From the sequence record PX441839.1: a DNA stretch of 64,000 nucleotides; one strand, given 5' to 3'. Both the position numbers and the translations under genes were made by a program. Within the stretch, counting starts at the first letter, position 1. The number at the start of each line of letters is the position of its first letter. Shown in pieces: positions 6,884 to 63,454 of the stretch. This DNA is from a phage. The notes below the pieces were generated by a model, which saw only the letters and a list, made by a program, of their open reading frames with translations, made no database searches and was not told where the DNA came from.

Positions 6884-7156
6884 ATGTTAAAATTCCTAAA
6901 GGACTTGATCCGGTCCACAACCGACCCTGCCAAGGCTTCACATACAAAGCTTTGGTCGAATATCGGTATGGCTTCAATGACTGCGGTGTTTCTCTGGTAT
7001 GGTTTCAAAGGAACCCTCCCTGAGTGGTATTTGTGGGTTTATGCCCCTTCCGTTGCTGCACCACAGTTATTTAGCAAACTGATCGCCCTTCGTTGGGGAA
7101 TAAACCCCAACCAGAAGAATACAGAAGATGAATTAAAAGGAGATCCTCGTGGCTGA
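6884..7156 (+). CDS. Small membrane protein (function unknown)
   Basis: 90 aa with two hydrophobic segments; stop overlaps the start of the long fibre gene. Confidence 0.35.
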   Translation: MLKFLKDLIRSTTDPAKASHTKLWSNIGMASMTAVFLWYGFKGTLPEWYLWVYAPSVAAPQLFSKLIALRWGINPNQKNTEDELKGDPRG

Positions 7157-14897: not shown

Positions 14898-14944
14898 TAA
14901 GTTATGGGTCTATTATATAAGACCCACCTCAATTAAGTCAACAC

Positions 14945-23703: not shown

Positions 23704-24825
23704 TTAATCTACACTTGCACTTATTTCAGTCGCAAGTCTAAAGCTCCCTTCGACCAAGCCAGGGATCTCCTCAACATTGTTAATTACAACATTTGACACT
23801 CTGACAGGAGGAGAACTCGGCAGGTAATCCTCCACCTTGCTTGCCACAACATCACCGTTTGTGTTTTTGACCACCAGTTTCGAGGCAGATCTTGATGTAG
23901 TGGTTGGAGCCTTTGTGTACGTTGTAACCTGAACAGCTTTTATCTGTTGACCACCTGGTGCTCTCCAGCTTGGGGACAGGGCTACAATTGGTGCCTTCCC
24001 TACAGTTTCAGATGCCAATGAATTCACAGCAGGGGAGTTCATAGCCCTCCCCATTGTATTTGAACCCCCATAGACGATATCTGAAATTGTTTGTGTCGTT
24101 CCTCCAGAGAAGCTACCTATGTCAGTGACACTTTGTGTTGTTCTTGTTATTTGGGGTTCACCCAAGAACTCAAAATTCCCTTCTTCATTGTATGCAGTAT
24201 ACATCCTTCCAAACATTAGTGGGTTAACAGTGTCGCCAAAGGCAACTCCATCGTACAAAGCACCAGAGAACCCTATGAAAAGTCCAGTCCCAACTGGCAT
24301 ACGCTCTGCGAAAGTGTAAGGACCAAGCGGCCCTGCCGGGGCATCTCCGTTGAGTGAGTTCCATGTCTCAAAGCTATCTTCACTGACCTTTCTTATACAC
24401 ACCTCCATGTAGTTATAACCAGGGGTGTACGATGATCGCATCAGGACTGTAGATGGGTCAACCCCATTGAACTGGTTTGTAAGTATCCCCGTCCGGAGGA
24501 ATCCTCTATTAAAGGGGAAGAATACCCGATACCCGAAGGTAAAGGTGGCATTCACTGGAGCTTCAAGAAGTATCTTCCTGACATCTATGGTGAACCCACC
24601 ATAATCTCCAGTGGAGCTTGTAAACCTGATTGCGAACACGGGGGATGATCCTCCACTCTGGGAGGCGGTCATAAGGGACCCCGGCAAGGTAGGTGATTTT
24701 ATCATAGATATTGACACACCGAGCTTTTTTGACAGGTACTCCTCAAGACCCTTTTCATAATCGTTGCTGGAATTATATGCGAATGGTGTCATATCCAAAA
24801 AATCTGTAAATCCGAGTATTGCCAT
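23704..24825 (-). CDS. Array paralog C (about 373 aa, possible lectin-like beta-sandwich)
   Basis: Shares diverged blocks with paralogs A and B (Y-x-A-[FY]-N-x-E-G; GDVVASK near the C-terminus); ATG with AAGGAG SD; overlaps the stop of micro-ORF C. Confidence 0.5.
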   Translation of the reverse strand: MAILGFTDFLDMTPFAYNSSNDYEKGLEEYLSKKLGVSISMIKSPTLPGSLMTASQSGGSSPVFAIRFTSSTGDYGGFTIDVRKILLEAPVNATFTFGYRVFFPFNRGFLRTGILTNQFNGVDPSTVLMRSSYTPGYNYMEVCIRKVSEDSFETWNSLNGDAPAGPLGPYTFAERMPVGTGLFIGFSGALYDGVAFGDTVNPLMFGRMYTAYNEEGNFEFLGEPQITRTTQSVTDIGSFSGGTTQTISDIVYGGSNTMGRAMNSPAVNSLASETVGKAPIVALSPSWRAPGGQQIKAVQVTTYTKAPTTTSRSASKLVVKNTNGDVVASKVEDYLPSSPPVRVSNVVINNVEEIPGLVEGSFRLATEISASVD

Positions 24826-24827
24826 AA

Positions 24828-25025
24828 TCACTCCTTAATTGGTGATGTTAAGACTTCTGTTACCACGAGTAGCGTGTTCTGTGCCAACTCAGGTTGAAGG
24901 AGAACCTCTGTGACCACAATGCCGACATTGGCAGAAAATTGTGGTGTAATAAGAACCTCTGTTGTCACTAAATAGACGTTGGAAAACATTGCCTGTTCCC
25001 CAACGGCGGTCATGATTTCAATCAT
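24828..25025 (-). CDS. Micro-ORF C: conserved N-module plus three 17-aa tandem repeats
   Basis: MIEIMTAVG..., then VTTEVLITPQFSANVGI / VVTEVLLQPELAQNTLL / VVTEVLTSPIKE; start overlaps the stop of paralog B (ATGA). Confidence 0.5.
   Translation of the reverse strand: MIEIMTAVGEQAMFSNVYLVTTEVLITPQFSANVGIVVTEVLLQPELAQNTLLVVTEVLTSPIKE
24831..24968 (-). repeat. Three tandem 51-bp (17-codon) repeats inside micro-ORF C
   Basis: Repeated AGAACCTCTGT(T/G)... units visible on the plus strand. Confidence 0.6.
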
Positions 25026-26089
25026 ACATCCACAACCCTCTCGCTGGAAGCAACGAACGAAAGACCTGCCAACTGGTCCCTTCCTGAAAGTGGAATAGTC
25101 ACCTTGCTAACCCCACGGGCGTAATCTTGACTATCGTTCTTTATGCTTTTCGATTTCAAAAGCTCACCATCAGAACTTACTATCTGAGATGTGATATCCA
25201 CAGACTTGCCTTGTACACTTGATCTTCCAACTAGTGTAGAGCTAACCGCAGCAATCTTCACAGAAGGGTCAAGAGTTGAAAGATTAGCTTTTGCCACTGC
25301 TGGGTTTACTAGGGTTGTTGGACCCAGCAATCCTCCCAAGTGATTATAGTTTAATCTGTTGGTAAGTGTTGCCTCCCCGTTTGGGTTATCACCTCCAGAT
25401 ACCAGTGTGTTTGGTAATGTTCTTACCGAGCAAGTTCCCAAACGCTCCTCAAGACCTTCCTTGTTGAATGCCCAATATTGGTCCATAAATGTTACCTCCA
25501 CTTGAGTGGTTGGTAACTTATTGGTGGTAAGAGGGGACCAATTATACCCAGTGCCTATTACCATTTGCTGGGGAAGAGAGTTTACAGAATCGTTTTGCAA
25601 GACAGTGCCGTCAACCCAAGCCCTTAGTCGATATGAGGTTGCAGAAACTTTACTTACTTCAAGCTCCACGTACACTGATCTTTCTGATCCCGAGTACCTC
25701 TGCATAGGGTAATCCAAAACTGCTGCCAAAGATCCAGAGGTAAACCCTCCCAACCTTAGGTCTGCGGTCATATATTCTTGGGGGATGATTACTCGGCTTC
25801 CGACCGTAAGGGTATCGCCAACATCCACAATCCAAGGCCCAATCGACGTCACAGTTGCTGCGTATGATGTCATCGTCGGAAAGAATGACACCTTATTTTG
25901 ACCAACGGTTCCGTACATGGTGCCGGATGAAATGTAGTAATCGAATCTACCTCCGTTTGAACCCACAGGGGTTTTTGGAATACAAGCGGCATTTAATGTT
26001 TGTAGCAGCAGGAGCGCATCGTTACCTTGTATTTGCCCCTTGTTAGGGAATTCCCTGAGGGAACCGAACCCATTGATGTGAAAAATCAT
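25022..26089 (-). CDS. Array paralog B (about 355 aa)
   Basis: Conserved blocks IVDVGDTLTVG, YWAFNKEGLEERLG, VGRSSVQG shared with paralog A; start overlaps micro-ORF B stop. Confidence 0.5.
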   Translation of the reverse strand: MIFHINGFGSLREFPNKGQIQGNDALLLLQTLNAACIPKTPVGSNGGRFDYYISSGTMYGTVGQNKVSFFPTMTSYAATVTSIGPWIVDVGDTLTVGSRVIIPQEYMTADLRLGGFTSGSLAAVLDYPMQRYSGSERSVYVELEVSKVSATSYRLRAWVDGTVLQNDSVNSLPQQMVIGTGYNWSPLTTNKLPTTQVEVTFMDQYWAFNKEGLEERLGTCSVRTLPNTLVSGGDNPNGEATLTNRLNYNHLGGLLGPTTLVNPAVAKANLSTLDPSVKIAAVSSTLVGRSSVQGKSVDITSQIVSSDGELLKSKSIKNDSQDYARGVSKVTIPLSGRDQLAGLSFVASSERVVDV

Positions 26090-26094
26090 ACAAC

Positions 26095-26286
26095 TCACCC
26101 CACAGTATAAAGATATTCTTGAACAAAAGCCGCTGAGTTAATCTCTGACGGGACATAATACAGATATTCTTGAACAAAAGCAACAGTATCTGTATTTGTT
26201 GGGGAGTAGTACAGGTACTCCTGAACAAAAGTCACAATCTCAGGATTAATGGCTCCACTTCCAGAGGCTGTCATCATCTCCAACAT
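26095..26286 (-). CDS. Micro-ORF B: conserved N-module plus three 17-aa tandem repeats
   Basis: MLEMMTASG..., then VQEYLYYSPTNTDTVAF / VQEYLYYVPSEINSAAF / VQEYLYTVG. Confidence 0.5.
   Translation of the reverse strand: MLEMMTASGSGAINPEIVTFVQEYLYYSPTNTDTVAFVQEYLYYVPSEINSAAFVQEYLYTVG
26098..26226 (-). repeat. Three tandem 51-bp repeats inside micro-ORF B
   Basis: Repeated GATATTCTTGAACAAAAGC-like units on the plus strand. Confidence 0.6.
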
Positions 26287-26302
26287 AGCATTACCTCAAT
26301 AA

Positions 26303-26320
26303 GACGCCCCGAAGGGCGTG
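26303..26320 (-). other. Inter-cassette RNA hairpin
   Basis: ACGCCC-CGAA-GGGCGT between paralog A stop and micro-ORF B start; only a weak T-run follows, so attenuator or processing site rather than full terminator. Confidence 0.35.
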
Positions 26321-26324
26321 TGAC

Positions 26325-27377
26325 TTAAACATTCGGTTCTTTTTCCCTTGAAGATACGAAACTGTAGTTTGTAAGTTCAGACATTGGTTTATCACTCACA
26401 TCCAAAACTGTTTCACAGAAACCTCCACGATAATCAGGGGTTACAGATTCCTTTGTGGTTGAGGATACTACCTTTCCAGTGTGATCCAGAATCTGACTGG
26501 TCACCGGAGCAGGAACTCCCGTTACCGACGACTTACCTACAGTTGTCATCTTAAAAGCCTTAATCCTTAGGTTAGGGTTCGGGCTTGGCATATTCACCTT
26601 TTGTACCATAGGGTCGCGAAGGGTTATCGGGTCCTGAGACCCTTTCGAGAGATCCCAATTAACCCTTGCGGTCCCCCAAGTGGACCCACCAGGGTTTTCA
26701 CTTCCTGCCGTTAATGTTCTTGGGACTTGGGTCACGGTTGCTCTCCCAATTCTCTCATCCCTTCCCTCAGTATTAAATGCAAAATAGATATCTTGGAAAT
26801 AAAAACTCCCCGCTGGGTTGGTGTTGGATTTCCAAAGAACACTTGTTCCAATAGCACCATAGTTGAACAGTTCCGACCCTTGACCCGCTTTCCTCAAAAG
26901 ACCGTTTACCCACATCTCGTAAGTGTATGGGTAATCAGGATGATCTGTTTTTCTAACTACCATCTCCACATACGGATTAGCTGTCCTATCTGTGTGGTCA
27001 CAAACCATGGTTAATGACGACAGATACCCATTTGAAAATCCACCAACCGCAGGTAATGAATTTGCGTGAGTAGATGTCATACCCAATCCACAACCAACCG
27101 TCAAAGCGTCCCCAACATCAATAATTATGGATGGGAGGTGAATATTCAAACATCCGATCCCTGATGGACCCAATACGTTCATTGACAACCTGTTGGTCCC
27201 AGGTAAAGATAGATTAGGGCTAGAACTCTGGTATGCATAATTTGCAAAAGTTGCACCTTGCTTTGGGCTTTGTGGGTGCCCGTACCGCAGAGAAGTTAAA
27301 ACGGTTTGGATATCGTTAGTGCTTACCAAGTTAGTTAATGGCTCCCACACAGAAAACCCCTGAATTCCGATAATCAT
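26325..27377 (-). CDS. Array paralog A (350 aa, possible lectin-like beta-sandwich)
   Basis: IIDVGDALTVG, YFAFNTEGRDERIG, VGKSSVTG blocks; SD AGAGGAAAG; ATG overlaps micro-ORF A stop (ATGA). Confidence 0.5.
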   Translation of the reverse strand: MIIGIQGFSVWEPLTNLVSTNDIQTVLTSLRYGHPQSPKQGATFANYAYQSSSPNLSLPGTNRLSMNVLGPSGIGCLNIHLPSIIIDVGDALTVGCGLGMTSTHANSLPAVGGFSNGYLSSLTMVCDHTDRTANPYVEMVVRKTDHPDYPYTYEMWVNGLLRKAGQGSELFNYGAIGTSVLWKSNTNPAGSFYFQDIYFAFNTEGRDERIGRATVTQVPRTLTAGSENPGGSTWGTARVNWDLSKGSQDPITLRDPMVQKVNMPSPNPNLRIKAFKMTTVGKSSVTGVPAPVTSQILDHTGKVVSSTTKESVTPDYRGGFCETVLDVSDKPMSELTNYSFVSSREKEPNV

Positions 27378-27574
27378 ACACTTTCCTCTATAACGTATAA
27401 ATATTCCGGCATTAAACCTATCGTACTTACATCGGGAATGATGGAGTACAAGTATTCCGGCATAATGCCTATAAGATTTACCTCTGGGGCCAGAATATAA
27501 AGATATTCCGGCATAAGACCTATGACCTCAACTGGGGCCTTTCTTACCCCTGATGCCGTCATCAATTCTATCAT
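27374..27574 (-). CDS. Micro-ORF A: conserved N-module plus three 17-aa tandem repeats
   Basis: MIELMTASGVRKAPVEVI, then GLMPEYLYILAPEVNLI / GIMPEYLYSIIPDVSTI / GLMPEYLYVIEESV. Confidence 0.5.
   Translation of the reverse strand: MIELMTASGVRKAPVEVIGLMPEYLYILAPEVNLIGIMPEYLYSIIPDVSTIGLMPEYLYVIEESV
27377..27520 (-). repeat. Three tandem 51-bp repeats inside micro-ORF A
   Basis: Repeated (A/G)ATATTCCGGCAT(T/A)A... units on the plus strand. Confidence 0.6.
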
Positions 27575-27586
27575 ACATACCCCCGA

Positions 27587-28426
27587 TTACACTTTTCTTG
27601 CATTGCTGGGAAATTCTCGTTTCTCCGTATCACCCCATATGATCCTTACAGCAGATGCACCTGGGGCATTTGAAGATCCGTGTCCAGACCCACCTCCGAA
27701 GTTTCCTCCTCGTCTACCACTCTGGTCTTCGCCTCCAGACCCACCTCTTGCACTTGTGGGGATTTGACCACCCCTGCCCCCTGCACCATTGACACCTACT
27801 CCGTAAATACCCACTCCACCACCGCCACCTGAGTTTTCACCAGATGACCCTGAGAAGTAATATCCTACAGATCCTCCACCCCCACCACCTTCCCCGCTAC
27901 CTCCAGCGGAGTAATTTGTAGAAGGGGGGTATGCATTACCTCCGTCCCCTCCCTTTCCTATATACCCTGCTGCACCTCCAGCGCCAGCACATCTTTTCCT
28001 GTCATTGGCGGAGGAGTTACTCCCTCCAGCACCACCTTTGTTTATTACCGCACCACCCATATCAGGATACGATCCTGTGTAAGGTTCCGGTCCAGAACCA
28101 AACCCTGCGACAACCAGCGGAGTTCCATCCCGAAAAAGTCCAACAACAGTTGTCCCATCATCGCTGCCTCTTGTGTGGACCTGTAGAGTCTCCCCAGGTA
28201 GCACAGGTATGTGGTTTCTCCATACTAGGTCTCCCCCAGCACCACCTCTACGTGGGAGAGGATCTGTTTGAGGCATCCCTCCTTGACCGACACACACTAC
28301 GCTAATATCTTCCACATTGTTTGGAACAACCCACAACTTAGGTGCAGTAGTGAGGGAAGTGTACTCCACATTCCCTAGTTTAACTGGAGCTTTAGTTTTT
28401 ACCGTCGCTGTCATTAATTCTAACAT
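27587..28426 (-). CDS. Glycine-rich protein with fused N-module
   Basis: Starts MLELMTATVKTKAPVKLGNVEY (resembles the micro-ORF N-module), followed by long GGxGG low-complexity tracts; start moved to the internal ATG that carries the shared motif. Confidence 0.45.
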   Translation of the reverse strand: MLELMTATVKTKAPVKLGNVEYTSLTTAPKLWVVPNNVEDISVVCVGQGGMPQTDPLPRRGGAGGDLVWRNHIPVLPGETLQVHTRGSDDGTTVVGLFRDGTPLVVAGFGSGPEPYTGSYPDMGGAVINKGGAGGSNSSANDRKRCAGAGGAAGYIGKGGDGGNAYPPSTNYSAGGSGEGGGGGGSVGYYFSGSSGENSGGGGGVGIYGVGVNGAGGRGGQIPTSARGGSGGEDQSGRRGGNFGGGSGHGSSNAPGASAVRIIWGDTEKREFPSNARKV

Positions 28427-28451
28427 AACTTTCCTCTTTAAGATACTAATT

Positions 28452-28709
28452 CTAGAACGGGTCTCCATCCAAGATCGGTATTAGCTGTACCGTTAATCTT
28501 CCCACCGAAGATATTCCCAGTAGACTAGGAGATACCTCTGCGTGGAACATGTTATTTTGGTACATTGTGAATTCAGTCGATAGTGAGTACCTGCCGTAAA
28601 TTGGAGGGTTAAAGTCCGTAGTTGGCAAAGTCAGAAGTGTCATAAGTACCTCTCTAAAATTCAATGCAATTGGATCGCTGTTTATAAAACCATAAAGTCT
28701 TCCTTCCAA
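28452..28709 (-). CDS. Hypothetical small protein
   Basis: 85 aa ORF inside the array; contains an EVLMTLLTL stretch. Confidence 0.3.
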   Translation of the reverse strand: MEGRLYGFINSDPIALNFREVLMTLLTLPTTDFNPPIYGRYSLSTEFTMYQNNMFHAEVSPSLLGISSVGRLTVQLIPILDGDPF

Positions 28710-28842
28710 ATTACCACAATTTCAAGCATTATTTACCCTCTGTGTTGCATGGAAGGATCTTTATTGATCCTCGACGTACCGCAGGATTCTTATCACTCCT
28801 TGCACACTGTTGTCGGGTACTGGTGAGTATAGCCTAGGTATC

Positions 28843-29379
28843 TCAAGTATATATAAACTCCCCTGTAAAGTTTACATCCGTGTATATTCCACGAAACGGA
28901 GATACAATCTTCATCAACCCGCTTACAGGGTCTAAGTACACAAAATTAGTAACCGTATATCCTAAGTAACTGGAGTAAGAGTTACTGGTGTGGTTATTCC
29001 TTGAAACCGAAATATATTGATTATAAGTAACAGTTACTGTTTTCGTTATAAGGACGGTAGAATTAGTCCGCAGCAGGGCTTGGTACGTACCATACGAAGG
29101 TGAGGCATGTTGCGCTACCAGATACCACCAAGAGTCGTAAGTTACCGAAGTTCCGTATGGGCTTCCCCACATCCTCCCGTCTGTTGAGTACACTTTCCCG
29201 ACATCATACGCCATAGTTTGGGCCGGAGCAGTGACCTCGGGTATCCAAGACCCTGCCGCCTGATTGTCAGGGATACGGAGTATTCCCCTTTGTTGGTCTA
29301 GCCATTTTAGAAACACAGGATAGGTCATGGGGCCCTCGATTGGGGCGGATGCCCCTGATACCGACAGTAACTCAAGCAT
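28843..29379 (-). CDS. Array family member with fused N-module (about 179 aa)
   Basis: Starts MLELLSVSGASAPIEG; the longer ORF-track start lies inside the upstream terminator hairpin, so the internal ATG with a GGAGAG SD was chosen. Confidence 0.4.
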   Translation of the reverse strand: MLELLSVSGASAPIEGPMTYPVFLKWLDQQRGILRIPDNQAAGSWIPEVTAPAQTMAYDVGKVYSTDGRMWGSPYGTSVTYDSWWYLVAQHASPSYGTYQALLRTNSTVLITKTVTVTYNQYISVSRNNHTSNSYSSYLGYTVTNFVYLDPVSGLMKIVSPFRGIYTDVNFTGEFIYT

Positions 29380-29397
29380 AAATCTCTCCAATATTTG

Positions 29398-29801: not shown

Positions 29802-30631
29802 CAAAGTTTAGCAGGTTCGTTAATCCTGCCCACACCATTACGTGTTGCCATACGGTTTCCCGTAGGATCGGACTATATCACCACCCTTTTCAGGGTGCTC
29901 CCCATTTCGACGCCACTTGGTCGCCTACGCCTCTCGGCTAGTCTCTGAACGTTAAGACCACGTATACTTCTCGGAAATATGCTTCCACTGCCGACGCTGC
30001 TTAATGGCTCGTACTGTTGCATAGGGGAATCCCATGTCGCGTACCTCTGCCTGGCTCATTCCGCTTTCAAGAAGCTGGCAAATGGTCATCACTTCGTCTT
30101 CTGTGAGGGCACTATTAGCATTGTTGATACCTTCCGCGCTGCGACAGTTGTGGCGATAGGCGTTCTCTATGTTTTTGCCTCTCGTAACCCACTGTAGGTT
30201 GTCTTTGTGGTTATTCCTTTTATCGGGCCACTTGTGATCAACCTCTGGAAGATTGTTCGGATTGGGAACAAAACATTCTGCCACCAAAACATGGACCGCC
30301 TTTGTCGTCGCCTTTTTGTTAAGGTAAAGACTGACAATTGCATACCCTCTTCCATTATCAACATGCTTCATAGGTTTACCTCGACGACCTATAATGGTCC
30401 CGTCCTCGTAAACTTTATATCCGAAATAGTCTTTGTACTCCACGTAGTCCTCTTCGCTGCTGATTAACATAGCTGCACTTTAGTTTATTATTAACCCAGT
30501 GTCAACCTTAGCCTTCCAGCAATTAAAGGAGTTTTCGATGTAGGTTGCCCTACAAAGCCACAATGTTACTTATGGTAATAGATAATACGACGAACTCCCT
30601 CGTCATACCATCCCTTCTTGACCAGTTGCCA
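29802..30631 (-). mobile_element. Group I intron in the DNA polymerase gene (boundaries approximate, about +/-6 nt)
   Basis: On the transcribed strand: P-like AATTGCTGGAAGG, R-like GTTCAGAGACTAGCC, S-like GATATAGTCC, terminal G before exon 2; contains an HNH ORF. Confidence 0.55.
29952..30470 (-). CDS. HNH homing endonuclease (intron-encoded)
   Basis: VHVLVAECFVPNPNNLPEVDHKWPDKRNNHKDNLQWVT His-Me finger signature; paralog of the ORF in the second intron. Confidence 0.65.
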   Translation of the reverse strand: MLISSEEDYVEYKDYFGYKVYEDGTIIGRRGKPMKHVDNGRGYAIVSLYLNKKATTKAVHVLVAECFVPNPNNLPEVDHKWPDKRNNHKDNLQWVTRGKNIENAYRHNCRSAEGINNANSALTEDEVMTICQLLESGMSQAEVRDMGFPYATVRAIKQRRQWKHISEKYTWS

Positions 30632-36787: not shown

Positions 36788-37258
36788 TTAGAAAGGTGGT
36801 TGGTCATCCCAATCACTGTCGTCTTCCACAACCTCAGGTGTGACTTTAGATTCTTCCGGTTTGGAATCCTCTTTAATCTCCATCTGCTGTGGTTCAATGT
36901 CATCTTCATCATCAGGGATATCGTCTTCCTTGAGATCAGATAGACCTTTCTCCGAGTTCTCTTGTGATAATGGCTGCATTTTACCAACAGCCTTCTCAAC
37001 ATAATGTTCAGAACTTGGATCATCTTCTGGATGAATCGCATACCACTCTCGAAGAGTTTCATATGGACTGTCCAAGAAGCCTTCTGGCGGTTCTAAGTAA
37101 TCACCTGTGTCAATATCATAGAACACAGGGAACTTCCCGCTACGCCCGTGCTTACGGTCATCTAGAATTACAAACCAAGAGGTATTTCGCTCTTTCATTG
37201 GCAACTCTGGATCTTTGTTACGCTCAATACCCACCATAAAATAAGTGTTCTTTTTGTC
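36788..37258 (-). CDS. Primase-helicase (T7 gp4-like), exon 2
   Basis: Begins DKKNTYFMVGIERNK...DDRKHGRSG...YDIDTGDYLEP (helicase C-terminal motifs) and ends in an acidic tail DDSDWDDQPPF with terminal Phe, as in T7 gp4. Confidence 0.55.
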   Translation of the reverse strand, partial: DKKNTYFMVGIERNKDPELPMKERNTSWFVILDDRKHGRSGKFPVFYDIDTGDYLEPPEGFLDSPYETLREWYAIHPEDDPSSEHYVEKAVGKMQPLSQENSEKGLSDLKEDDIPDDEDDIEPQQMEIKEDSKPEESKVTPEVVEDDSDWDDQPPF

Positions 37259-38123
37259 CAGTGGGTTCGCTACTCCCACCCGGTGCGATTCCTGGCACCC
37301 GCCTACACTTTCGTGCAGGAACAGACTATATCATCACCTTTCGGTGCTCTCCGCTTCGGGACCGCTTGGCCCTAACGCCTTTCGGCTAGTCGTTGAGGTT
37401 TTTGCACGTTCTGGGTACATCTTCCAAGAATACAAGTCCCCGACCTCTTTCCAATCCCTTCGGGAGCGGATATTGAGGACTGCTGACCTTGTTACAGGTA
37501 ATCCACTATTATCGACAATCTTCTGCGCTGACCAACCCTCAGAAAGAAGCCTACAAATTTTGTGAACCTCTGCCTCTGTGACTTTGGACCTGTAATGATC
37601 CTCTCCCCTCTTTGGAAGCTTATTGGCAATAGAGTGCTCAAGATTTTGCCTACCAGTGACCCATTCCAGGTCATCTTTGTGGTTAAATTCCTTGCCTCTT
37701 TTATGATTAACTTCGGGTAAGTTCAGCGGGTTTGGAATATAAGTCTTAGCTACCAACCTGTGAACATACTCGGGCGTTCTCTTACCTTTAAGTATCACAT
37801 TGACAAAATAATACCCTGTACTCTTGTTTCGAATGTTCTTCAAAAATTTATTTGTGAACAAACTAAATACCTTGCCATCTTCTGTTACAAGATATTTACT
37901 ACCCTCTTCTATTGGTATCATGTTTCCCCCTTCTTTATTCTAACAAAAGGGTATAATACACAAAAGAATTTGAATATGCAACTTACCTGCTGATTACCCA
38001 ATCCTCTGTCTTTTCAAACATTCACGCCCACCCTTACGGGTCACGTTGTAGTGCCAGAGGCTCTAAGGGCTTCCCAGCAATTCAAAGAGTTTTACATGCG
38101 CTAAATCAACGCATCATCGCACG
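37259..38123 (-). mobile_element. Group I intron in the primase-helicase gene (boundaries approximate)
   Basis: P-like AATTGCTGGGAAG, R-like CAACGACTAGCC, S-like GATGATATAGTCTG on the transcribed strand; core clearly related to the polymerase intron; contains an HNH ORF. Confidence 0.5.
37334..37921 (-). CDS. HNH homing endonuclease (intron-encoded)
   Basis: YVHRLVAKTYIPNPLNLPEVNHKRGKEFNHKDDLEWVT; paralog of the ORF at 29952-30470. Confidence 0.65.
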   Translation of the reverse strand: MIPIEEGSKYLVTEDGKVFSLFTNKFLKNIRNKSTGYYFVNVILKGKRTPEYVHRLVAKTYIPNPLNLPEVNHKRGKEFNHKDDLEWVTGRQNLEHSIANKLPKRGEDHYRSKVTEAEVHKICRLLSEGWSAQKIVDNSGLPVTRSAVLNIRSRRDWKEVGDLYSWKMYPERAKTSTTSRKALGPSGPEAESTER

Positions 38124-39644
38124 AGAACCTGCAAACTGTGCCGACTGAACCTGACCACCAAATTCATGGGGTTTTCCAGATTCCGGTTTGTTCAAGTGAC
38201 AGAAACAATAATATGTGAAACCTAAGTCCTTTGCAAGGATAGAGATCTCATCTGAAAATCGTTCCAGTTCTGTGTTAGCATCACCTGGTGACATACCTTG
38301 CACAAGTCGAGTAATTGGGTCGATAATAATATCTTCACAACCCTCCACCAAGACTGCGTGGCGGATTGCACCCTTCACCTCGTCCCATACTGCACGACCA
38401 TAGTTGGAATAATAAATGATCTTATCGCCAACATAATCTGTAGCTTGGATTAGTTCTTCATGCTTGAAGTATCCACGTTGTCCTTCAAAGATTTCGTTAC
38501 CCCAAACATCTCGGTAAGTCCCATCTTCCTGAGGGATCATTACCTTTTCTGCGTTAATGAAGTCCTTGTGGTAAATTTTACCTGCAACCTTCTTACAAGT
38601 GATGTCGTTCTCTTCTTCAAACTTAAAGATACCGACTTTCTTCTTGTCTTTTTCAATGATGTGCTCGACAAGTTGGTTAACAAACTCGGACTTACCGATC
38701 TTAACACCTGCACCAAGGAAGTATCCCTCTCCTTTACGACGACCCAGTGTCAACTTGGTCATGGTAGGCCAAGGCCATGATTTACCAAGTTTTGGAATCT
38801 CGTGCGCTTTGTCTCGAAATTGTGCATACGTAGAGAAACCTTCTGGTACATAGTCCTTTGGCTTCATTGCTGCCCAGAATAATTGGTCAGCCATTCCCTT
38901 GATGTACATGTCGCATGGGTCCATGTCCTCTGGGATGTCAACAACCTTCATCTGAGGAATTACTGAGTAAACCGCTGCAACAGCATCCTTACCTTTCATA
39001 ATCCCCTTGGCCTTTTCTGCCTCCGTTGCACGATCAGCATCAAAAGCTACAATAATCTCTTCAAACTTGTTCAGAAGCTTGTAGTTGTTCTTCTGAGCTA
39101 GGTTCTGCACGGCATTAGATGTGCCGTTGGAAATTGAGACCACCGTGAAGTTTGGTTTACGTGCATTTCCATCCTTAGATTTATACTTTTCTCGGAGAAC
39201 CTGCCACAACACTGCCGCATCGTACTCGCCCTCCGTGATAAAAATCATGCGACGTGAGGATTTATTTGCACCCTCCAGACCAAACAGGTCACAAGCGACA
39301 GATTGGAAACCAATCGTACTAAAGTGGCCCTTCTGTTGCTTAGGAATGGTCAGATCTCGCTTCTTAAAGCCGACGATCTTACCCTCCAGTGTGTAGGGAA
39401 AATAGTGCGCCTCTGGTGTCATCCCATCCTTGGCAGACAGCTTAGTCCTGATTCCAAAGCGCTCTGCCGTCTTCTGATCGATACCTCGCTCAGGGATGGC
39501 TTTAAATGGGTAAGTTTTTACATCTTCTACTGTTTCTTCAACCTTGTTCATACGACCACCCCCTACTGAACGAGATACCGATGCCTTCGGGTTCTTGTAC
39601 CCCGTCTTATAACCACCAAACAGACCTTCACCTAATGTGCTCAC
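38124..39644 (-). CDS. Primase-helicase (T7 gp4-like), exon 1
   Basis: TOPRIM FITEGEYDA; Walker A GAGVKIGKSEF; H3-like CHLNKPESGKPHEFGG; last few ORF-track codons (38106-38123) interpreted as intron read-through. Confidence 0.7.
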
Positions 39645-41158: not shown

Positions 41159-42571
41159 TTAACCTCCAAAAATTTGTGGGAATGTTCTTTTATAAAAATC
41201 AGCCACTTGCTGGTCAACAATAATATCTTTCACCCGCAACGGCTTAGACAAACGCAGACCCTCTACACTTCGGGCACGAGACAGCATAACATATGTCTGA
41301 CCTGCTGTAAATGCCCCGTATCCAAGGTCAATATTAACCTTGTCTAAGGTTAACCCTTGACTCTTGTGTCCGGTAATAGCATAACCCAGTTTGAGTGGAA
41401 ACTGCAAGAACTTTCCGATCTCCTTATCCACAAGGCGGGTTGCCTCTACCTTCTTCTTGACGGTTTTCTTTGTCCCGTCAGGCATATCAACTTCCTCTTC
41501 CACCTCTTTCCAATAGGTCTCTGGAACCTGAATGTTGTTTTTCCACTCATTTCTTCCCAGCGTCACAGGGACACCGTCTACATTAACAACTACGAATGTA
41601 CGGGCAATACGGGATACAATTCCAACAGTCCCATTAACATATTGTGGCTCACCCTCCCCCTCTTTGGGGTTGTGGTTTACAGTAATCATTACCTTTAGCC
41701 CAACCTTCAAGCTTAAGGTTTCCTGTACCGGACGGTCAGGGAACTCTCCACTAATATGAGCTTGGAACTCATGAGCCTCTGCCTTAATTTTGGCAAACTC
41801 ACGAGCATTGATTGCCTCTGCCATCTTGTTTGTTGTGGTCAAGGTAACAGCATCCGCAAGAGGCGCTTTCCCAAAGCAACAGTTCTTATTGAGGAACTCT
41901 ACAGCTTCGTTTAAGTTCTTACCAACACGGATGTTGTTCAGATGGTTAGCATACACAGGGTCTGCCTGTCGGTGAACCTTCGGCAGATAGCAGTTCGTAA
42001 AGTTTAAAGAGTTCCATACATCACTTTCGAAAGGGATCTCATCTCCATATAGGCGACGGAATTCCGCAATTTCGTTACGAACCAGAACAGGCTTAATCTG
42101 GAACCCATCCCCAAAAGCGATGACCTGTAGGCCACCAAATGGCTTGTTAACTTTCCGATGGTGTCGGAGTTTCATATCCATCTCTTTCAACTTATCTCTC
42201 CGCACCATAGAGATCTCATCGATAACAAGAGCTTCTAGGGCATCGGAGGATAACAGCATCGCCGCCTTCCGAGATTTCGCCTTGTAGTCCTCGTCTGTCG
42301 TGATGCCAAAAGTAAGTCCAAAAGCCTTGTGGCAAGACATCCCCGCAATATTAAGTGCAGCAATCCCCGTTGGGGCAACGAACAAAAAACTCTCCCCAAA
42401 GAACTCCCTGAGAGACGAGATCATCATACTTTTACCAGAACCACCTGGTCCAGTGATGAACACATTCTCCCCTGCCATAATAGCTTCCATCCCTGCATCA
42501 TTTCCGATTACTGTTTTACTCACCAATATACTCCTCGATTTCGTCAGGGTAAAGGACGTATGTCTTTCCAT
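41159..42571 (-). CDS. SF1 DNA helicase, Dda/RecD/Pif1-like
   Basis: Walker A FITGPGGSGKS, Walker B LVIDEISMV, C-terminal VMLSRARS-type motif. Confidence 0.7.
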   Translation of the reverse strand: MERHTSFTLTKSRSILVSKTVIGNDAGMEAIMAGENVFITGPGGSGKSMMISSLREFFGESFLFVAPTGIAALNIAGMSCHKAFGLTFGITTDEDYKAKSRKAAMLLSSDALEALVIDEISMVRRDKLKEMDMKLRHHRKVNKPFGGLQVIAFGDGFQIKPVLVRNEIAEFRRLYGDEIPFESDVWNSLNFTNCYLPKVHRQADPVYANHLNNIRVGKNLNEAVEFLNKNCCFGKAPLADAVTLTTTNKMAEAINAREFAKIKAEAHEFQAHISGEFPDRPVQETLSLKVGLKVMITVNHNPKEGEGEPQYVNGTVGIVSRIARTFVVVNVDGVPVTLGRNEWKNNIQVPETYWKEVEEEVDMPDGTKKTVKKKVEATRLVDKEIGKFLQFPLKLGYAITGHKSQGLTLDKVNIDLGYGAFTAGQTYVMLSRARSVEGLRLSKPLRVKDIIVDQQVADFYKRTFPQIFGG

Positions 42572-42698
42572 CCACTAAGGATTCACATAAGTAACTTTGA
42601 ATGAATCCATCGTGAAAATCTAAAACCTTAAATACATGACCCGCCTTTGGGTGGTCGAGTCTGTCACTATAATCCGCCGTCAGATACACTTTCTTCAT
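42516..42698 (-). CDS. Hypothetical small protein
   Basis: ORF with internal start chosen to avoid overlap with the hydrolase gene. Confidence 0.3.
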   Translation of the reverse strand: MKKVYLTADYSDRLDHPKAGHVFKVLDFHDGFIQSYLCESLVDGKTYVLYPDEIEEYIGE

Positions 42699-43213
42699 TT
42701 TACCCTCTCTTTGTAAAATATGTGGTTTCCGATTATTACTGTTCTTACCATACTGGCTATCCAATAGGGCCTGATCTTCTTTGTATGGTAATGCGTAGAA
42801 CCATTCGTGAAATCATAAGATGAGTATACAGCAGGGTACTTGTGCAATGCAAGAATAAATTTGGATAATTTCTTTGCCTTCTCCCAAGTAGCTTTATCCC
42901 TGATCCGGTAATTCTTGCCGGAGTTTGCCCAAGAGAACTGGGAATCTTGATAAACAACACCTTTTACGGAATCTGGATATCTGTCCTTATCTTTTCTGTT
43001 GAGAGTTACAAAACCAACAGCGAGCATACCTCTCTCACCTTCACCAGATGCCTCTTTAAACATGTTACATGCAAGGGCATTGACTGCATTATCATTCTTC
43101 TTGCAGACGTGGACAACGGGTGGGTTTTTCGGTGCGTTCTCTTTAGCCAAAGCCGAGGCGGTGGATAGAGACAACGTACAGGCCAAAAGAATGGCGGTTA
43201 TCCGCTTCTTCAT
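42695..43213 (-). CDS. Secreted cell-wall hydrolase, SleB/CwlJ (Hydrolase_2)-like
   Basis: Signal peptide MKKRITAILLACTLSLSTASALA; EASGEGERGMLAVGFVTLNR...VKGVVYQDSQFSW matches the Hydrolase_2 pattern. Confidence 0.6.
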   Translation of the reverse strand: MKKRITAILLACTLSLSTASALAKENAPKNPPVVHVCKKNDNAVNALACNMFKEASGEGERGMLAVGFVTLNRKDKDRYPDSVKGVVYQDSQFSWANSGKNYRIRDKATWEKAKKLSKFILALHKYPAVYSSYDFTNGSTHYHTKKIRPYWIASMVRTVIIGNHIFYKERVK

Positions 43214-43271
43214 GAGGACTCCTAAAATAATAAAGGCCCAGTGTACTTAACTGGGCCAGTGTGTCAATAGC

Positions 43272-44690
43272 TTATCGCTTCATTTGTGAAAATAAATATG
43301 TTTTAGCTACCTTCGAGATACGGCTACCAACATCCTTCATAGTTAACCCCGAAGTCTCCAGTGTATCGTACTCCTCCTTGTAGATATCTGAGTTAAGCCA
43401 CTTTAAAAATTCACCAACTTTAGGCCCAAGTTCAACAGGGTCTTCGCCAAATACCTCAGTAAGGGCTTGGTCTAGTCGAGATTTGGTTAAAGCATACTCA
43501 ACAAACTTCTCCACAGACTCCAACTTCTCAGGGTCAACCGTCGCCAGTTTCTTCACCTTTGAAGACGAGTGTTTTTCACCCTTAACCTTAAACCATGTCC
43601 CAGAGTTCTTTGCAAGTTCCTTCTTAAGGGGTTTCCATACAACACCCTCACCAATACCAGTCACCCCAAAGAACTTACCGATGGGACAAGCGTCTTCAAC
43701 CTGGGTGGTGATCTCTACAAGCCGATTTGTTGATTTTTCAGGGTCATTGAAGTCAATAACCTCAGTGAACCAGCCAAAATCCATAGCATTGTAGACCTTT
43801 ATATGCGGTGCAGAGAGAGCCATCATTGAAATTGTATTCGTCCACTTCATCCCTTGATTATCTCGACCAAAAGCCACACCAATAATCATGAATGTTCGCT
43901 CAAGCTCAGATACGGCAACGCCCTTTTGAATGCCCTTCCCCATCCACTCACCAGCAATTTCGATAGGGTATTCTACAGGAATGCCTTTGGATCGTGCAAT
44001 GAACTTTGCTTGCTCAAAAAGGTGCTCTACTTGGACAATCTTCTTAGCGAAGAATTCAGCAAACCCGTTGTTGTCTGACACCAAAGGTAACAGTTTACGC
44101 TCTTTACTTTGGAAAGCGATCTCTCCATCAGCGTACTGAACGAAACTCCCATTTGTTCCGTGGGCCTTTACCGTACCAATGTACACCTCTTTTGCATCCG
44201 AAGGCATAGGTTTACGAATGACGTTTCCATCCTCATCCACACCTCCAAATGTCAGAGTATTCTGAACATTCTTAACAACATTTCGGAATTGACCCGTGGA
44301 GGGGTATTTAATAGCTGATTTGTCCACAGGTTCAGACTGCATAAGGTCATGTTGACCGGATACGATCCGAGATTTTAATTCTTCCCACATTTCAACTAGG
44401 TCTTCACCCGTGACAACCTCTTGAACCTTTTCCCCAACCAACTTGTAGGCGCTGTTACGAGTAATTGCGTACAGTTCACCATCTTTTGCGGCAAATCCGC
44501 AAACATAGGATGTTCGGATATCCGAAGAATCTCGGAATCGATTCCCCATATCCTTTTCCAAATTACCAAAAAGACAAATTGCCTTACTTCCTTTCAATAG
44601 ACCTTCCGTGACAATACCGAAGTCAACACTACCTTCAACACGGAGTTCCCCACAATAGCGACGACCTTCAATAATCTTATCCAATTTCAC
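43272..44690 (-). CDS. ATP-dependent RNA ligase-like nucleotidyltransferase (Rnl2-type motifs) with about 170-aa N-terminal extension
   Basis: Motif I KAHGTN (K-x-H-G-T-N), motif III IAGEWMGKG, motif IV GEGVVWKP, motif V WFKVKGEKH. Confidence 0.55.
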   Translation of the reverse strand: MKLDKIIEGRRYCGELRVEGSVDFGIVTEGLLKGSKAICLFGNLEKDMGNRFRDSSDIRTSYVCGFAAKDGELYAITRNSAYKLVGEKVQEVVTGEDLVEMWEELKSRIVSGQHDLMQSEPVDKSAIKYPSTGQFRNVVKNVQNTLTFGGVDEDGNVIRKPMPSDAKEVYIGTVKAHGTNGSFVQYADGEIAFQSKERKLLPLVSDNNGFAEFFAKKIVQVEHLFEQAKFIARSKGIPVEYPIEIAGEWMGKGIQKGVAVSELERTFMIIGVAFGRDNQGMKWTNTISMMALSAPHIKVYNAMDFGWFTEVIDFNDPEKSTNRLVEITTQVEDACPIGKFFGVTGIGEGVVWKPLKKELAKNSGTWFKVKGEKHSSSKVKKLATVDPEKLESVEKFVEYALTKSRLDQALTEVFGEDPVELGPKVGEFLKWLNSDIYKEEYDTLETSGLTMKDVGSRISKVAKTYLFSQMKR

Positions 44691-45183
44691 TCTCCTTTAA
44701 TACATACACGGTAACATCCCAATGAGATAGATTTTTATCAATCATCTTAGAGATAATTTTCCAATCACCTCCGGCAAGACCTGCACCAAGCTTAGGTAAA
44801 CCCACCCGAAGTTCATTTTTTGGTACGTCCAATAAACGAACCTTTCCGTGAAGAGATGCGTTCATCATTTTTAAAGCCTTGTCTAAGGCATCATAATCAA
44901 GGTCCATCTTCCCCTGTTTACGTAACCACCAACCAAACTGACCGTAGAGGTTGTACACAAGGGTTGCGGATTCGAAGCAAAAAGCCTCTGTTATAGTCCC
45001 TAGCTTACCTTGATCACCCTTCTTTGTGTTTTGATCAACGTAGTAAGCCTCTGGAAATGATTTTGCAATCAAGGGAGCAATCCCAGATTTCATAGTGTTG
45101 AAACAATTGCAGCAGTGAGCGATAACATCCACCTCTTTGTCTTTAGCTGCCTGGATAAGATCACCAACCTTGTATTTTATCAT
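44677..45183 (-). CDS. Macro-domain-like protein
   Basis: VGDLIQAA...VDVIAHCCNCFNTMKSGIAPLIAKSF resembles the macro-domain N-terminal signature; weak motif-level call. Confidence 0.4.
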   Translation of the reverse strand: MIKYKVGDLIQAAKDKEVDVIAHCCNCFNTMKSGIAPLIAKSFPEAYYVDQNTKKGDQGKLGTITEAFCFESATLVYNLYGQFGWWLRKQGKMDLDYDALDKALKMMNASLHGKVRLLDVPKNELRVGLPKLGAGLAGGDWKIISKMIDKNLSHWDVTVYVLKESEIG

Positions 45184-62305: not shown

Positions 62306-62334
62306 AGTATAGCCAGGCTTGCGCCCGGCGTCAA
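62306..62334 (-). promoter_or_regulatory. Sigma70-like promoter firing leftward into the non-coding/repeat region
   Basis: On the minus strand: TTGACG, 17-nt spacer, TATACT; no ORF downstream. Confidence 0.45.
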
Positions 62335-63408: not shown

Positions 63409-63426
63409 AAATAATTGTTGACGTAT

Positions 63427-63454
63427 CGTTATGACCGTTTATAATAGCGGTCAT
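63427..63454 (+). promoter_or_regulatory. Sigma70 consensus-like promoter with operator-like inverted repeat
   Basis: TTGACG, 16-nt spacer, TATAAT; inverted repeat ATGACCG...CGGTCAT brackets the -10. Confidence 0.55.

Follow-up and report, generated by a model that had tools for sequence, protein, structure and literature searches.

A predicted Sec-exported SleB-type hydrolase in a Vequintavirinae phage, and the loss of its membrane-protein neighbour

The hydrolase gene and its predicted product

The phage DNA analysed here, 64,000 nucleotides of sequence record PX441839.1 (the window), encodes on its minus strand a small SleB-type hydrolase of the Hydrolase_2 family. Only one record matches the window, at about 83% nucleotide identity: Salmonella phage SSBI34 (MZ520832), a member of the Vequintavirinae with a genome of 141 kb. 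The window is collinear with SSBI34 positions ~66.9-129.2 kb, through baseplate and tail-fibre genes and then a minus-strand replication block. On this sequence relationship we assign the phage to the Vequintavirinae, as a large virulent phage of the Salmonella type. A first-pass annotation, made from the letters alone, had put the gene at 42695-43213 in a replication region. The exact open reading frame was recovered on the minus strand, and its neighbours are indeed genes for a PIF1/Dda-like helicase, an RNA ligase, a primase/helicase and DNA polymerase I. The features of the gene itself are as follows:

42695..43213, minus strand: gene for the predicted exported SleB-type (Hydrolase_2) hydrolase, 172 amino acids (aa), ATG start, TGA stop (open reading frame list)
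43145..43213, minus strand: codons 1-23, Sec-type signal peptide MKKRITAILLACTLSLSTASALA, with a predicted signal peptidase I cut after A23 (between ALA and KE)
43052..43054, minus strand: GAG codon of Glu54, the predicted catalytic glutamate, in the motif FKEASGE, equivalent to YGESRGE of SleB (phmmer alignment to 4FET/4F55)
42713..43045, minus strand: Hydrolase_2 catalytic domain (Pfam residues 57-167; structured part ~31-172)

The Hydrolase_2 signature reported in the first-pass annotation spans the whole PF07486 profile (all 100 positions, matched by residues 57-167) with a score of 82.1 bits and E=4.8e-23, where the gathering score of the family is 27. PHROGs places the protein in phrog_938 'endolysin' (E=1.5e-26). 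Hydrolase_2 is the only domain in the Pfam scan: residues 24-33 form a short Lys/Pro linker, and there is no N-terminal peptidoglycan-binding domain. An AlphaFold2 model built with 24 homologues has a mean predicted local distance difference test score (pLDDT) of 87, being confident over residues 31-172 and low over residues 1-30. In a Foldseek search of the PDB this model matched the SleB catalytic domains 4F55 and 4FET (probability 1.00, target template-modelling score 0.75-0.81) and nothing else with E<1. The same two structures were the only solved relatives found by sequence with phmmer.

Within the aligned set of 24 homologues, E54, R73 and H164 are invariant. The catalytic groove of Bacillus subtilis SleB is formed by E203, R222, Y278 and H301 (PMC13556211), and E54 and R73 would correspond to E203 and R222 at a constant offset of 149. 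The hydrolase thus shares with Bacillus SleB/CwlJ (4FET, 4F55; TIGR02869) the fold of the catalytic domain and the conserved Glu/Arg/His groove residues. It differs from Bacillus SleB in having a host among the Enterobacteriaceae, which form no spores, with no muramic-delta-lactam substrate, and in having no evident YpeB-type partner. We rejected the idea that it is a true SleB orthologue, as it scores 52.9 bits against the TIGR02869 equivalog, for which the cutoff is 236.5, and has no peptidoglycan-binding domain. The label 'N-acetylmuramyl-L-alanine amidase', repeatedly given to this protein in phage papers, does not fit either, because the solved SleB structures are annotated as lytic transglycosylases.

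The N-terminus has the three parts of a cleaved signal peptide: an n-region MKKR (charge +3), a hydrophobic core of 12 residues, ITAILLACTLSL, and a c-region STASALA, with A-x-A at -3/-1, after which the chain continues as KENAPKNPP. This layout and the junction between ALA and KE are present in nearly all full-length homologues (~170-177 aa). On viral contigs of IMG/VR, a crude test of hydropathy detected an N-terminal hydrophobic segment in 76 of 80 relatives; the homologues in T5-like phages, Phapecoctavirus, Justusliebigvirus and Pakpunavirus have one as well. The 'cleavable-looking' signal peptide of the first-pass annotation is therefore well founded as a recurring tripartite N-terminus with an A-x-A motif, and signal peptidase would be expected to cut between A23 and K24. 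The predicted mature form has 149 aa, a mass of 17.1 kDa and an isoelectric point of 9.8. Its Cys37 and Cys49 are conserved together among close homologues, a pair that would fit a periplasmic disulfide. For the orthologue CB7_83 a signal peptide has also been predicted, and the protein is described as toxic when expressed in E. coli ('data not shown'; PMC7344957).

Other readings of the N-terminus fare less well. The sequence 'LLAC' around Cys12 could suggest a lipoprotein, a candidate we rejected: only 7 hydrophobic residues precede the Cys, and most homologues have Ser, Ala or Val in its place. A signal-anchor-release (SAR) endolysin is also unlikely. The h/c region is rich in Ala, Ser and Thr, as in SAR proteins, yet the +3 n-region and the conserved A-x-A site followed by Lys are typical of cleaved signal peptides. 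Unlike SAR endolysins, the hydrolase would be expected to be cut at this canonical site rather than to keep an uncleaved, weakly hydrophobic helix, and its closest relative has a separate endolysin.

Homology extends over the full length of the protein at 98-100% coverage, with 91% identity to the 'spore cortex-lytic enzyme' of SSBI34, 50-53% to the proteins of phiTE and DU_PP_I, and 50% to that of FV3. The SSBI34 protein (ORF165/QYC52587), CB7_83, CR3_087/CR9_095 and 'SleB' of rV5/FV3 are all of the same kind, with ~167-177 aa, a signal peptide, a single Hydrolase_2 domain and 50-91% full-length identity. The position of the gene is also shared: it lies after an RNA ligase gene and ahead of a helicase gene in Certrevirus-like phages or of rIIA in rV5-like phages. 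These comparisons place the hydrolase in Pfam Hydrolase_2 and in the SleB-like orthologous group of the Vequintavirinae, and with high confidence we predict that its product is an exported peptidoglycan-cleaving enzyme. Between the gene and its SSBI34 orthologue the ratio of non-synonymous to synonymous substitution rates (dN/dS) is 0.043, at a dS of ~1.0, that is, at saturating synonymous divergence; the gene is thus under strong purifying selection and is maintained.

The lost membrane-protein neighbour and the upstream elements

No holin-like gene had been seen next to the hydrolase in the first-pass annotation. The flanking proteins of the window do lack hydrophobic segments, and comparison with relatives shows how this came about. 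The relevant features lie on both sides of the gene:

42695..42712, minus strand: deletion junction, at which ~205 bp with a gene for a protein of two transmembrane segments (the two-TMD gene) are gone (pairwise alignment with SSBI34)
42516..42698, minus strand: gene for a 60-aa soluble protein (MKKVYLTADY...; phrog_14198, E=4.4e-12; no transmembrane segment)
41159-42571: PIF1/Dda-like helicase, downstream (Pfam and PHROGs)
36788-39644, minus strand: primase/helicase, with DNA polymerase I beyond
43219..43223, minus strand: ribosome-binding site AGGAG, 5 nt before the ATG, kept in SSBI34
43225..43257, minus strand: terminator-like hairpin, GGCCCAGT-loop-ACTGGGCC then TTTATTATTT, in the gap from the stop codon of the RNA ligase to the start codon of the hydrolase (consensus scan)
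43240..43267, minus strand: sigma70-like promoter candidate TTGACA-16 nt-TACACT (10/12 match), overlapping the hairpin, in the 58-bp upstream gap
43272-44690, minus strand: RNA ligase, upstream neighbour
44677-45183, minus strand: macro-domain phosphatase, upstream

In SSBI34, an unannotated open reading frame for a 76-aa protein with two transmembrane segments (L001 21683..21913, minus strand) starts on the hydrolase stop codon through an ATGA overlap. Certrevirus phage F2M1E has a 65-aa equivalent without the charged C-terminal tail. Both proteins match phrog_10205 'membrane protein', and neither matches a Pfam holin family. The equivalent protein CB7_82 was put forward as a class II holin candidate in the CB7 paper (PMC7344957). 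We did not adopt a holin assignment as fact, given the match to phrog_10205 only and the missing charged tail of the F2M1E version. The arrangement is also present in a metagenomic outgroup, L012, whose hydrolase is 54-55% identical and whose genes run RNA ligase, hydrolase, 71-aa two-TMD protein, 62-aa protein, PIF1 helicase.

In the window, the last three hydrolase codons (R-V-K-stop) and the ATGA overlap derive from the 3' end of the two-TMD gene of SSBI34, and the last three residues of the hydrolase consequently differ from those of its orthologues. The stop codon now overlaps the start of the 60-aa gene (ATGA), which in turn overlaps the start of the helicase gene. In SSBI34 and L012 the homologues of the 60-aa protein are encoded after the two-TMD gene and before the helicase gene, so in the ancestral arrangement the 60-aa gene goes with the helicase. 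Apart from the missing two-TMD gene, the window, SSBI34, F2M1E, CR9 and L012 are collinear here. Since the two-TMD gene is found in SSBI34, in Certrevirus and in the outgroup L012, these alignments mark its absence from the window as a lineage-specific deletion, a secondary loss and not what is usual in the family.

The gene has not simply moved. A two-TMD homologue was sought by tblastn in the whole window and not found (best E=1.2). Among open reading frames of at least 25 aa on both strands of 40.9-45.3 kb, the only hydrophobic segments besides that of the hydrolase were in short frames embedded in larger genes, and we rejected these as a hidden holin. No holin or spanin gene lies near the hydrolase in this interval, which therefore does not have the make-up of a lysis cassette.

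Cronobacter phage CR9 offers a related case: the two-TMD gene downstream of CR9_095 (L016 16806-17141, minus strand) is present and is split by a frameshift into two overlapping frames, which explains the literature report that CR9 lacks it. The frameshift could reflect a pseudogene or a sequencing error.

More distantly, what follows the hydrolase gene varies. It is rIIA directly in FV3 and L013, and a helicase directly in L015, so that the two-TMD gene, absent from all three, is not universal in the Vequintavirinae group. In Mydovirus and L014 a different small membrane protein comes next and then rIIA/rIIB. Among 75 relatives in IMG/VR, only 7 have a small membrane protein downstream, and we rejected a general pairing of exported Hydrolase_2 enzymes with such a protein in favour of a lineage-specific one. 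In the rIIA-linked metagenomic relatives L013 (2063-2464) and L014 (2102-2455), the immediate upstream neighbour of the SleB-like gene codes for a protein of 117-133 aa built from repeated 'GNV..MSGDV' units, which recall repeats of the bactofilin type.

With its coupled downstream gene deleted in the window and frameshifted in CR9, the hydrolase might be taken for a decaying, non-functional remnant left after the loss of its partner. We consider this extremely unlikely: the open reading frame is intact with all invariant residues kept, dN/dS is as low as 0.043 at saturating synonymous divergence, the ribosome-binding site and upstream elements are conserved, and several lineages get by without any downstream membrane protein. 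As the two-TMD gene is deleted and the hydrolase nevertheless remains under purifying selection, the function of the hydrolase in the window lineage is independent of that partner.

Upstream, the stem of the terminator-like hairpin is fully conserved in SSBI34 and its loop is variable. Of the promoter candidate, SSBI34 keeps the -35 element and has TATACT at -10. Sigma70-like early/middle promoters have been described in Certrevirus (PMC7344957). Transcription from the candidate would begin near 43233. Sites of the form TTGAC...TAnAnT occur in several intergenic places of the window, and at 43240-43267 (minus), 14912-14941 (minus), 63418-63445 (plus) and 62306-62334 (minus) an inverted repeat spans the spacer or the -10 element, a recurring sigma70-like arrangement of promoter plus hairpin.

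Canonical lysis genes and the role of the hydrolase

The SSBI34 paper describes a baseplate lysozyme and the SleB homologue only, and presumes that the latter releases the phage (PMC8879037). In the SSBI34 genome we found a 136-aa Peptidase_M15_4 protein, annotated as hypothetical (L002 14896-15306, minus strand; Pfam E=6.7e-10; phrog_465 'endolysin', E=1.8e-61), and an Rz/Rz1 pair (phrog_4297, phrog_1267) adjoining the large terminase gene. Since SSBI34 encodes an M15_4 endolysin and Rz/Rz1, its SleB-like protein is unlikely to be the endolysin, and the published assignment of phage release to it is probably wrong. The M15 and Rz/Rz1 loci lie in the part of the SSBI34 genome outside the collinear range of the window; when the M15 endolysin, Rz/Rz1 and a relocated two-TMD gene were sought by tblastn in the window, nothing better than E=0.16 was returned. 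A holin has not been identified in this phage group. One possible candidate, judged from its sequence, is a 90-aa protein encoded among the tail-fibre genes (6884-7156, plus strand; phrog_1322 'membrane protein'; 96% identity to SSBI34), which has two hydrophobic segments and a charged C-terminal tail.

The pattern is wider than SSBI34. Other Vequintavirinae have a separate GH19, M15C or lysozyme-like endolysin besides the SleB-like gene (PMC9862379, PMC11370258, PMC7344957), and one of these endolysins was tested in vitro (PMC9862379). In T5-like Salmonella phages the holin has the M15C endolysin as its neighbour, and a SleB-domain protein is encoded far from it (PMC11180984); Phapecoctavirus combines a GH24 lysozyme with a Hydrolase_2 protein (PMC10793346). 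A paper on the endolysin of Salmonella phage S10 makes no mention of SleB-type enzymes (PMC9677904). With moderate confidence, these genome comparisons suggest that the exported Hydrolase_2 protein serves as an additional wall hydrolase in an accessory role rather than as the principal endolysin.

The SSBI34 paper's presumption amounts to a different view, in which the hydrolase is the principal, holin-independent endolysin, exported through Sec and degrading the wall alone at the end of infection. PHROGs does put it in 'endolysin' families, the SSBI34 authors saw no other endolysin (PMC8879037), CR3_087 is described as implicated in host lysis, the toxicity of CB7_83 points the same way (PMC7344957), and a holin-candidate two-TMD gene is coupled to the gene in relatives. 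We nonetheless regard this view as improbable. SSBI34 encodes the unrecognised M15_4 peptidase, of T5-endolysin type; a separate canonical endolysin is found in every Vequintavirinae genus examined; it is the M15 enzyme, not the SleB-type one, that T5-like phages place beside the holin; and the hydrolase gene lies in the replication block, not among late or lysis genes. The suggestion of the first-pass annotation, a secreted endolysin with lysis partners elsewhere, thus holds in part: predicted export, membership of a muralytic family and the location of Rz/Rz1 in SSBI34, outside the part equivalent to the window, are in line with it, and the role of the endolysin proper is made unlikely by the canonical M15 endolysin of SSBI34. 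The alternative named in that annotation was a peptidoglycan hydrolase with some different role.

Nor is a virion-associated lysin that pierces the wall at DNA entry a plausible description; we give it almost no credence. Some large internal virion proteins of podoviruses do contain a Hydrolase_2 domain, among them one of 1191 aa in Agrobacterium phage Atu_ph03; as the Atu_ph03 match lies in that protein, we set aside a lead that 'PPH' of this phage is a tested homologue. With a cleavable Sec signal peptide, however, the protein would leave the cytoplasm, in which virions are assembled, and the gene is far from the structural module. In the CB7 study, CB7_83 appears only in the lysis section and not among the 26 virion proteins detected by mass spectrometry, and a baseplate lysozyme of the gp25 type is already known from the phage family.

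Our overall reading, held at slightly better than even confidence, is that the hydrolase is a Sec-exported accessory muralytic enzyme of the Vequintavirinae. The gene would be transcribed with the middle/replication block, possibly from the candidate sigma70-like promoter of its own. By way of its Sec signal peptide the precursor would reach the periplasm, and signal peptidase I would remove the first 23 residues, up to Ala23. The mature 149-aa SleB-fold domain would then, most likely as a lytic transglycosylase acting through Glu54, cleave glycan strands. Because Sec export would remove the need for a holin in crossing the membrane, the enzyme could accumulate beside the sacculus before lysis. 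Its cleavage of glycan strands would complement the cleavage of peptide stems by a canonical cytoplasmic M15 endolysin, which, like the spanins, would be encoded elsewhere. In most relatives the coupled two-TMD protein that follows the gene probably modulates the hydrolase, be it as holin, pinholin or regulator; in the window phage, with the partner deleted, the hydrolase would work alone.

Holin-independent export of lysins has precedents. Lys44 of Oenococcus phage fOg44, P1 Lyz, R21 of phage 21 and Mu gp22 with its releasin, which are signal-peptide and SAR endolysins, resemble the hydrolase in holin-independent Sec export, and by the same concept the small membrane protein beside the hydrolase in relatives could trigger or release it (PMC9239132, PMC7143992). 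Those proteins differ from the hydrolase in being sole endolysins and in belonging to other catalytic families.

By analogy, the best functional precedent for the hydrolase is Tgl of Kayvirus. Tgl is a transglycosylase-type enzyme with a signal peptide, secreted through Sec and transcribable from an early host-type promoter; in E. coli it is toxic only with its signal peptide in place, and it acts with LysK once the membrane is perturbed (PMC7150955). On paper, both are cases of a large virulent myovirus with a canonical endolysin plus a small exported enzyme of the lytic-transglycosylase type. They differ in domain (Hydrolase_2 versus IsaA/SceD-like) and in host (Gram-negative versus Gram-positive), and Tgl was tested by experiment whereas the hydrolase is known from its sequence.

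Free-standing Hydrolase_2 proteins with an N-terminal signal peptide or anchor also occur in T5-like phages (Epseptimavirus TrudiRoth), Phapecoctavirus (Mt1B1_P17), Justusliebigvirus (FKP3) and Pakpunavirus (vB_PaeM_B55). In these four groups, too, the gene lies among DNA-metabolism genes and exists in addition to a canonical endolysin. They differ from the hydrolase of the window in that identity is only 35-39%, the neighbours are others and no membrane gene is coupled; in Pakpunavirus the N-terminus is an uncharged anchor, not a classical signal peptide.

Several points weigh against an accessory lysis enzyme. Export, cleavage, muralytic activity and a part in lysis are all deduced from sequence, for the hydrolase as for its close orthologues. 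Bacillus SleB requires muramic-delta-lactam (PMC13556211), which is absent from enterobacterial peptidoglycan, so that activity on the host wall is an assumption drawn from family membership. The M15 endolysin and spanins of the window phage are extrapolated from SSBI34. A hydrolase that was freely active in the periplasm before lysis would need restraint, and no restraining factor is identified once the two-TMD partner is gone. Finally, promoter-like sites are no more frequent in the region than in shuffled sequence, and the promoter at 43240..43267 remains a candidate only.

On another account the hydrolase would be a periplasmic wall-remodelling factor outside lysis that loosens or reshapes the sacculus, takes part in superinfection exclusion, or partners the rII genes in membrane integrity. 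We think this unlikely and still give it some weight. In every phage group examined the gene lies among early/middle DNA-metabolism genes, here with a sigma70-like promoter candidate directly upstream; in Vequintavirus, Mydovirus and metagenomic relatives it is directly linked to rIIA/rIIB; and it persists under strong purifying selection next to canonical lysis genes that form a full set. Genome position is, however, weak evidence for timing. In T5 the true holin and endolysin themselves lie outside the late region, which counts against an argument from position. The tested analogue with the same layout, Kayvirus Tgl, proved to be an additional lysis enzyme (PMC7150955), in keeping with the accessory muralytic role that we prefer.

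Other features of the window and the wider family

Further observations concern the surrounding genes. The RNA ligase has an extra N-terminal region of ~110 aa with weak matches to phrog_16099 and phrog_12555, and its gene overlaps that of the macro-domain 'phosphatase' (both within the minus-strand block 43272-45183), so that a pair resembling an RNA repair module lies directly upstream of the hydrolase. The orthologue of the PIF1/Dda-like helicase in SSBI34 (L001 20154-21524) is annotated as 'Ti-type conjugative transfer relaxase'; in Pfam and PHROGs the window copy matches PIF1/Dda-like helicase only.

Two replication genes are interrupted relative to SSBI34. The DNA polymerase I gene contains a group I catalytic intron at 29849-30581 on the minus strand (Rfam RF00028, 54 bits, E=6e-11), which coincides with a break in collinearity; SSBI34 has no intron there. 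The DnaB-type primase/helicase gene (36788-39644, minus strand) is split into parts for 512 N-terminal aa (38106-39644) and 163 C-terminal aa (36788-37279) by an insertion of ~860 bp that holds an open reading frame for a 195-aa HNH-type endonuclease (37334-37921). This insertion is absent from SSBI34 and gave no Rfam intron call at the gathering score. Three segments amid otherwise collinear sequence have no nucleotide match to SSBI34 (10716-12788, 23976-27600 and 28430-29385, covering the tail-fibre end and part of the early block) and probably represent gene cassettes that vary or have been exchanged.

Earlier papers already cover the gene, the signal peptide, the conservation in Vequintavirinae and the possible holin partner (PMC7344957, PMC8879037). 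New here are a further species-level member, the clean, naturally occurring loss of the partner from a lineage that keeps the hydrolase under purifying selection, and two corrections to the annotation of SSBI34, the overlooked M15 endolysin and the unannotated two-TMD gene, by which the published paper undercounts the wall hydrolases of that phage. Beyond the deletion and these corrections, the hydrolase is what would be expected of a gene family that has been described before. Genome papers label the gene 'endolysin' or 'spore cortex-lytic enzyme', and among the papers found none tests its function.

A broader and distinctly doubtful proposal would extend the remodelling account to the exported Hydrolase_2 enzymes of rV5-like, T5-like, phAPEC8-like and PAK_P1-like phages, as a class of middle-expressed periplasmic wall-remodelling enzymes and not lysis enzymes. 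If it were true, these enzymes would have a distinct job, such as sacculus conditioning or envelope-level control of superinfection, tied genetically to rIIA/rIIB in rV5-like phages, and the two-TMD deletion in the window would show the essential function to be free of a holin-like trigger. Whichever role applies, a second, apparently Sec-exported SleB-type hydrolase accompanies the canonical endolysin in many of the large virulent phages that serve in therapy or have been suggested for it, among them rV5-like and T5-like phages, Phapecoctavirus and Pakpunavirus.

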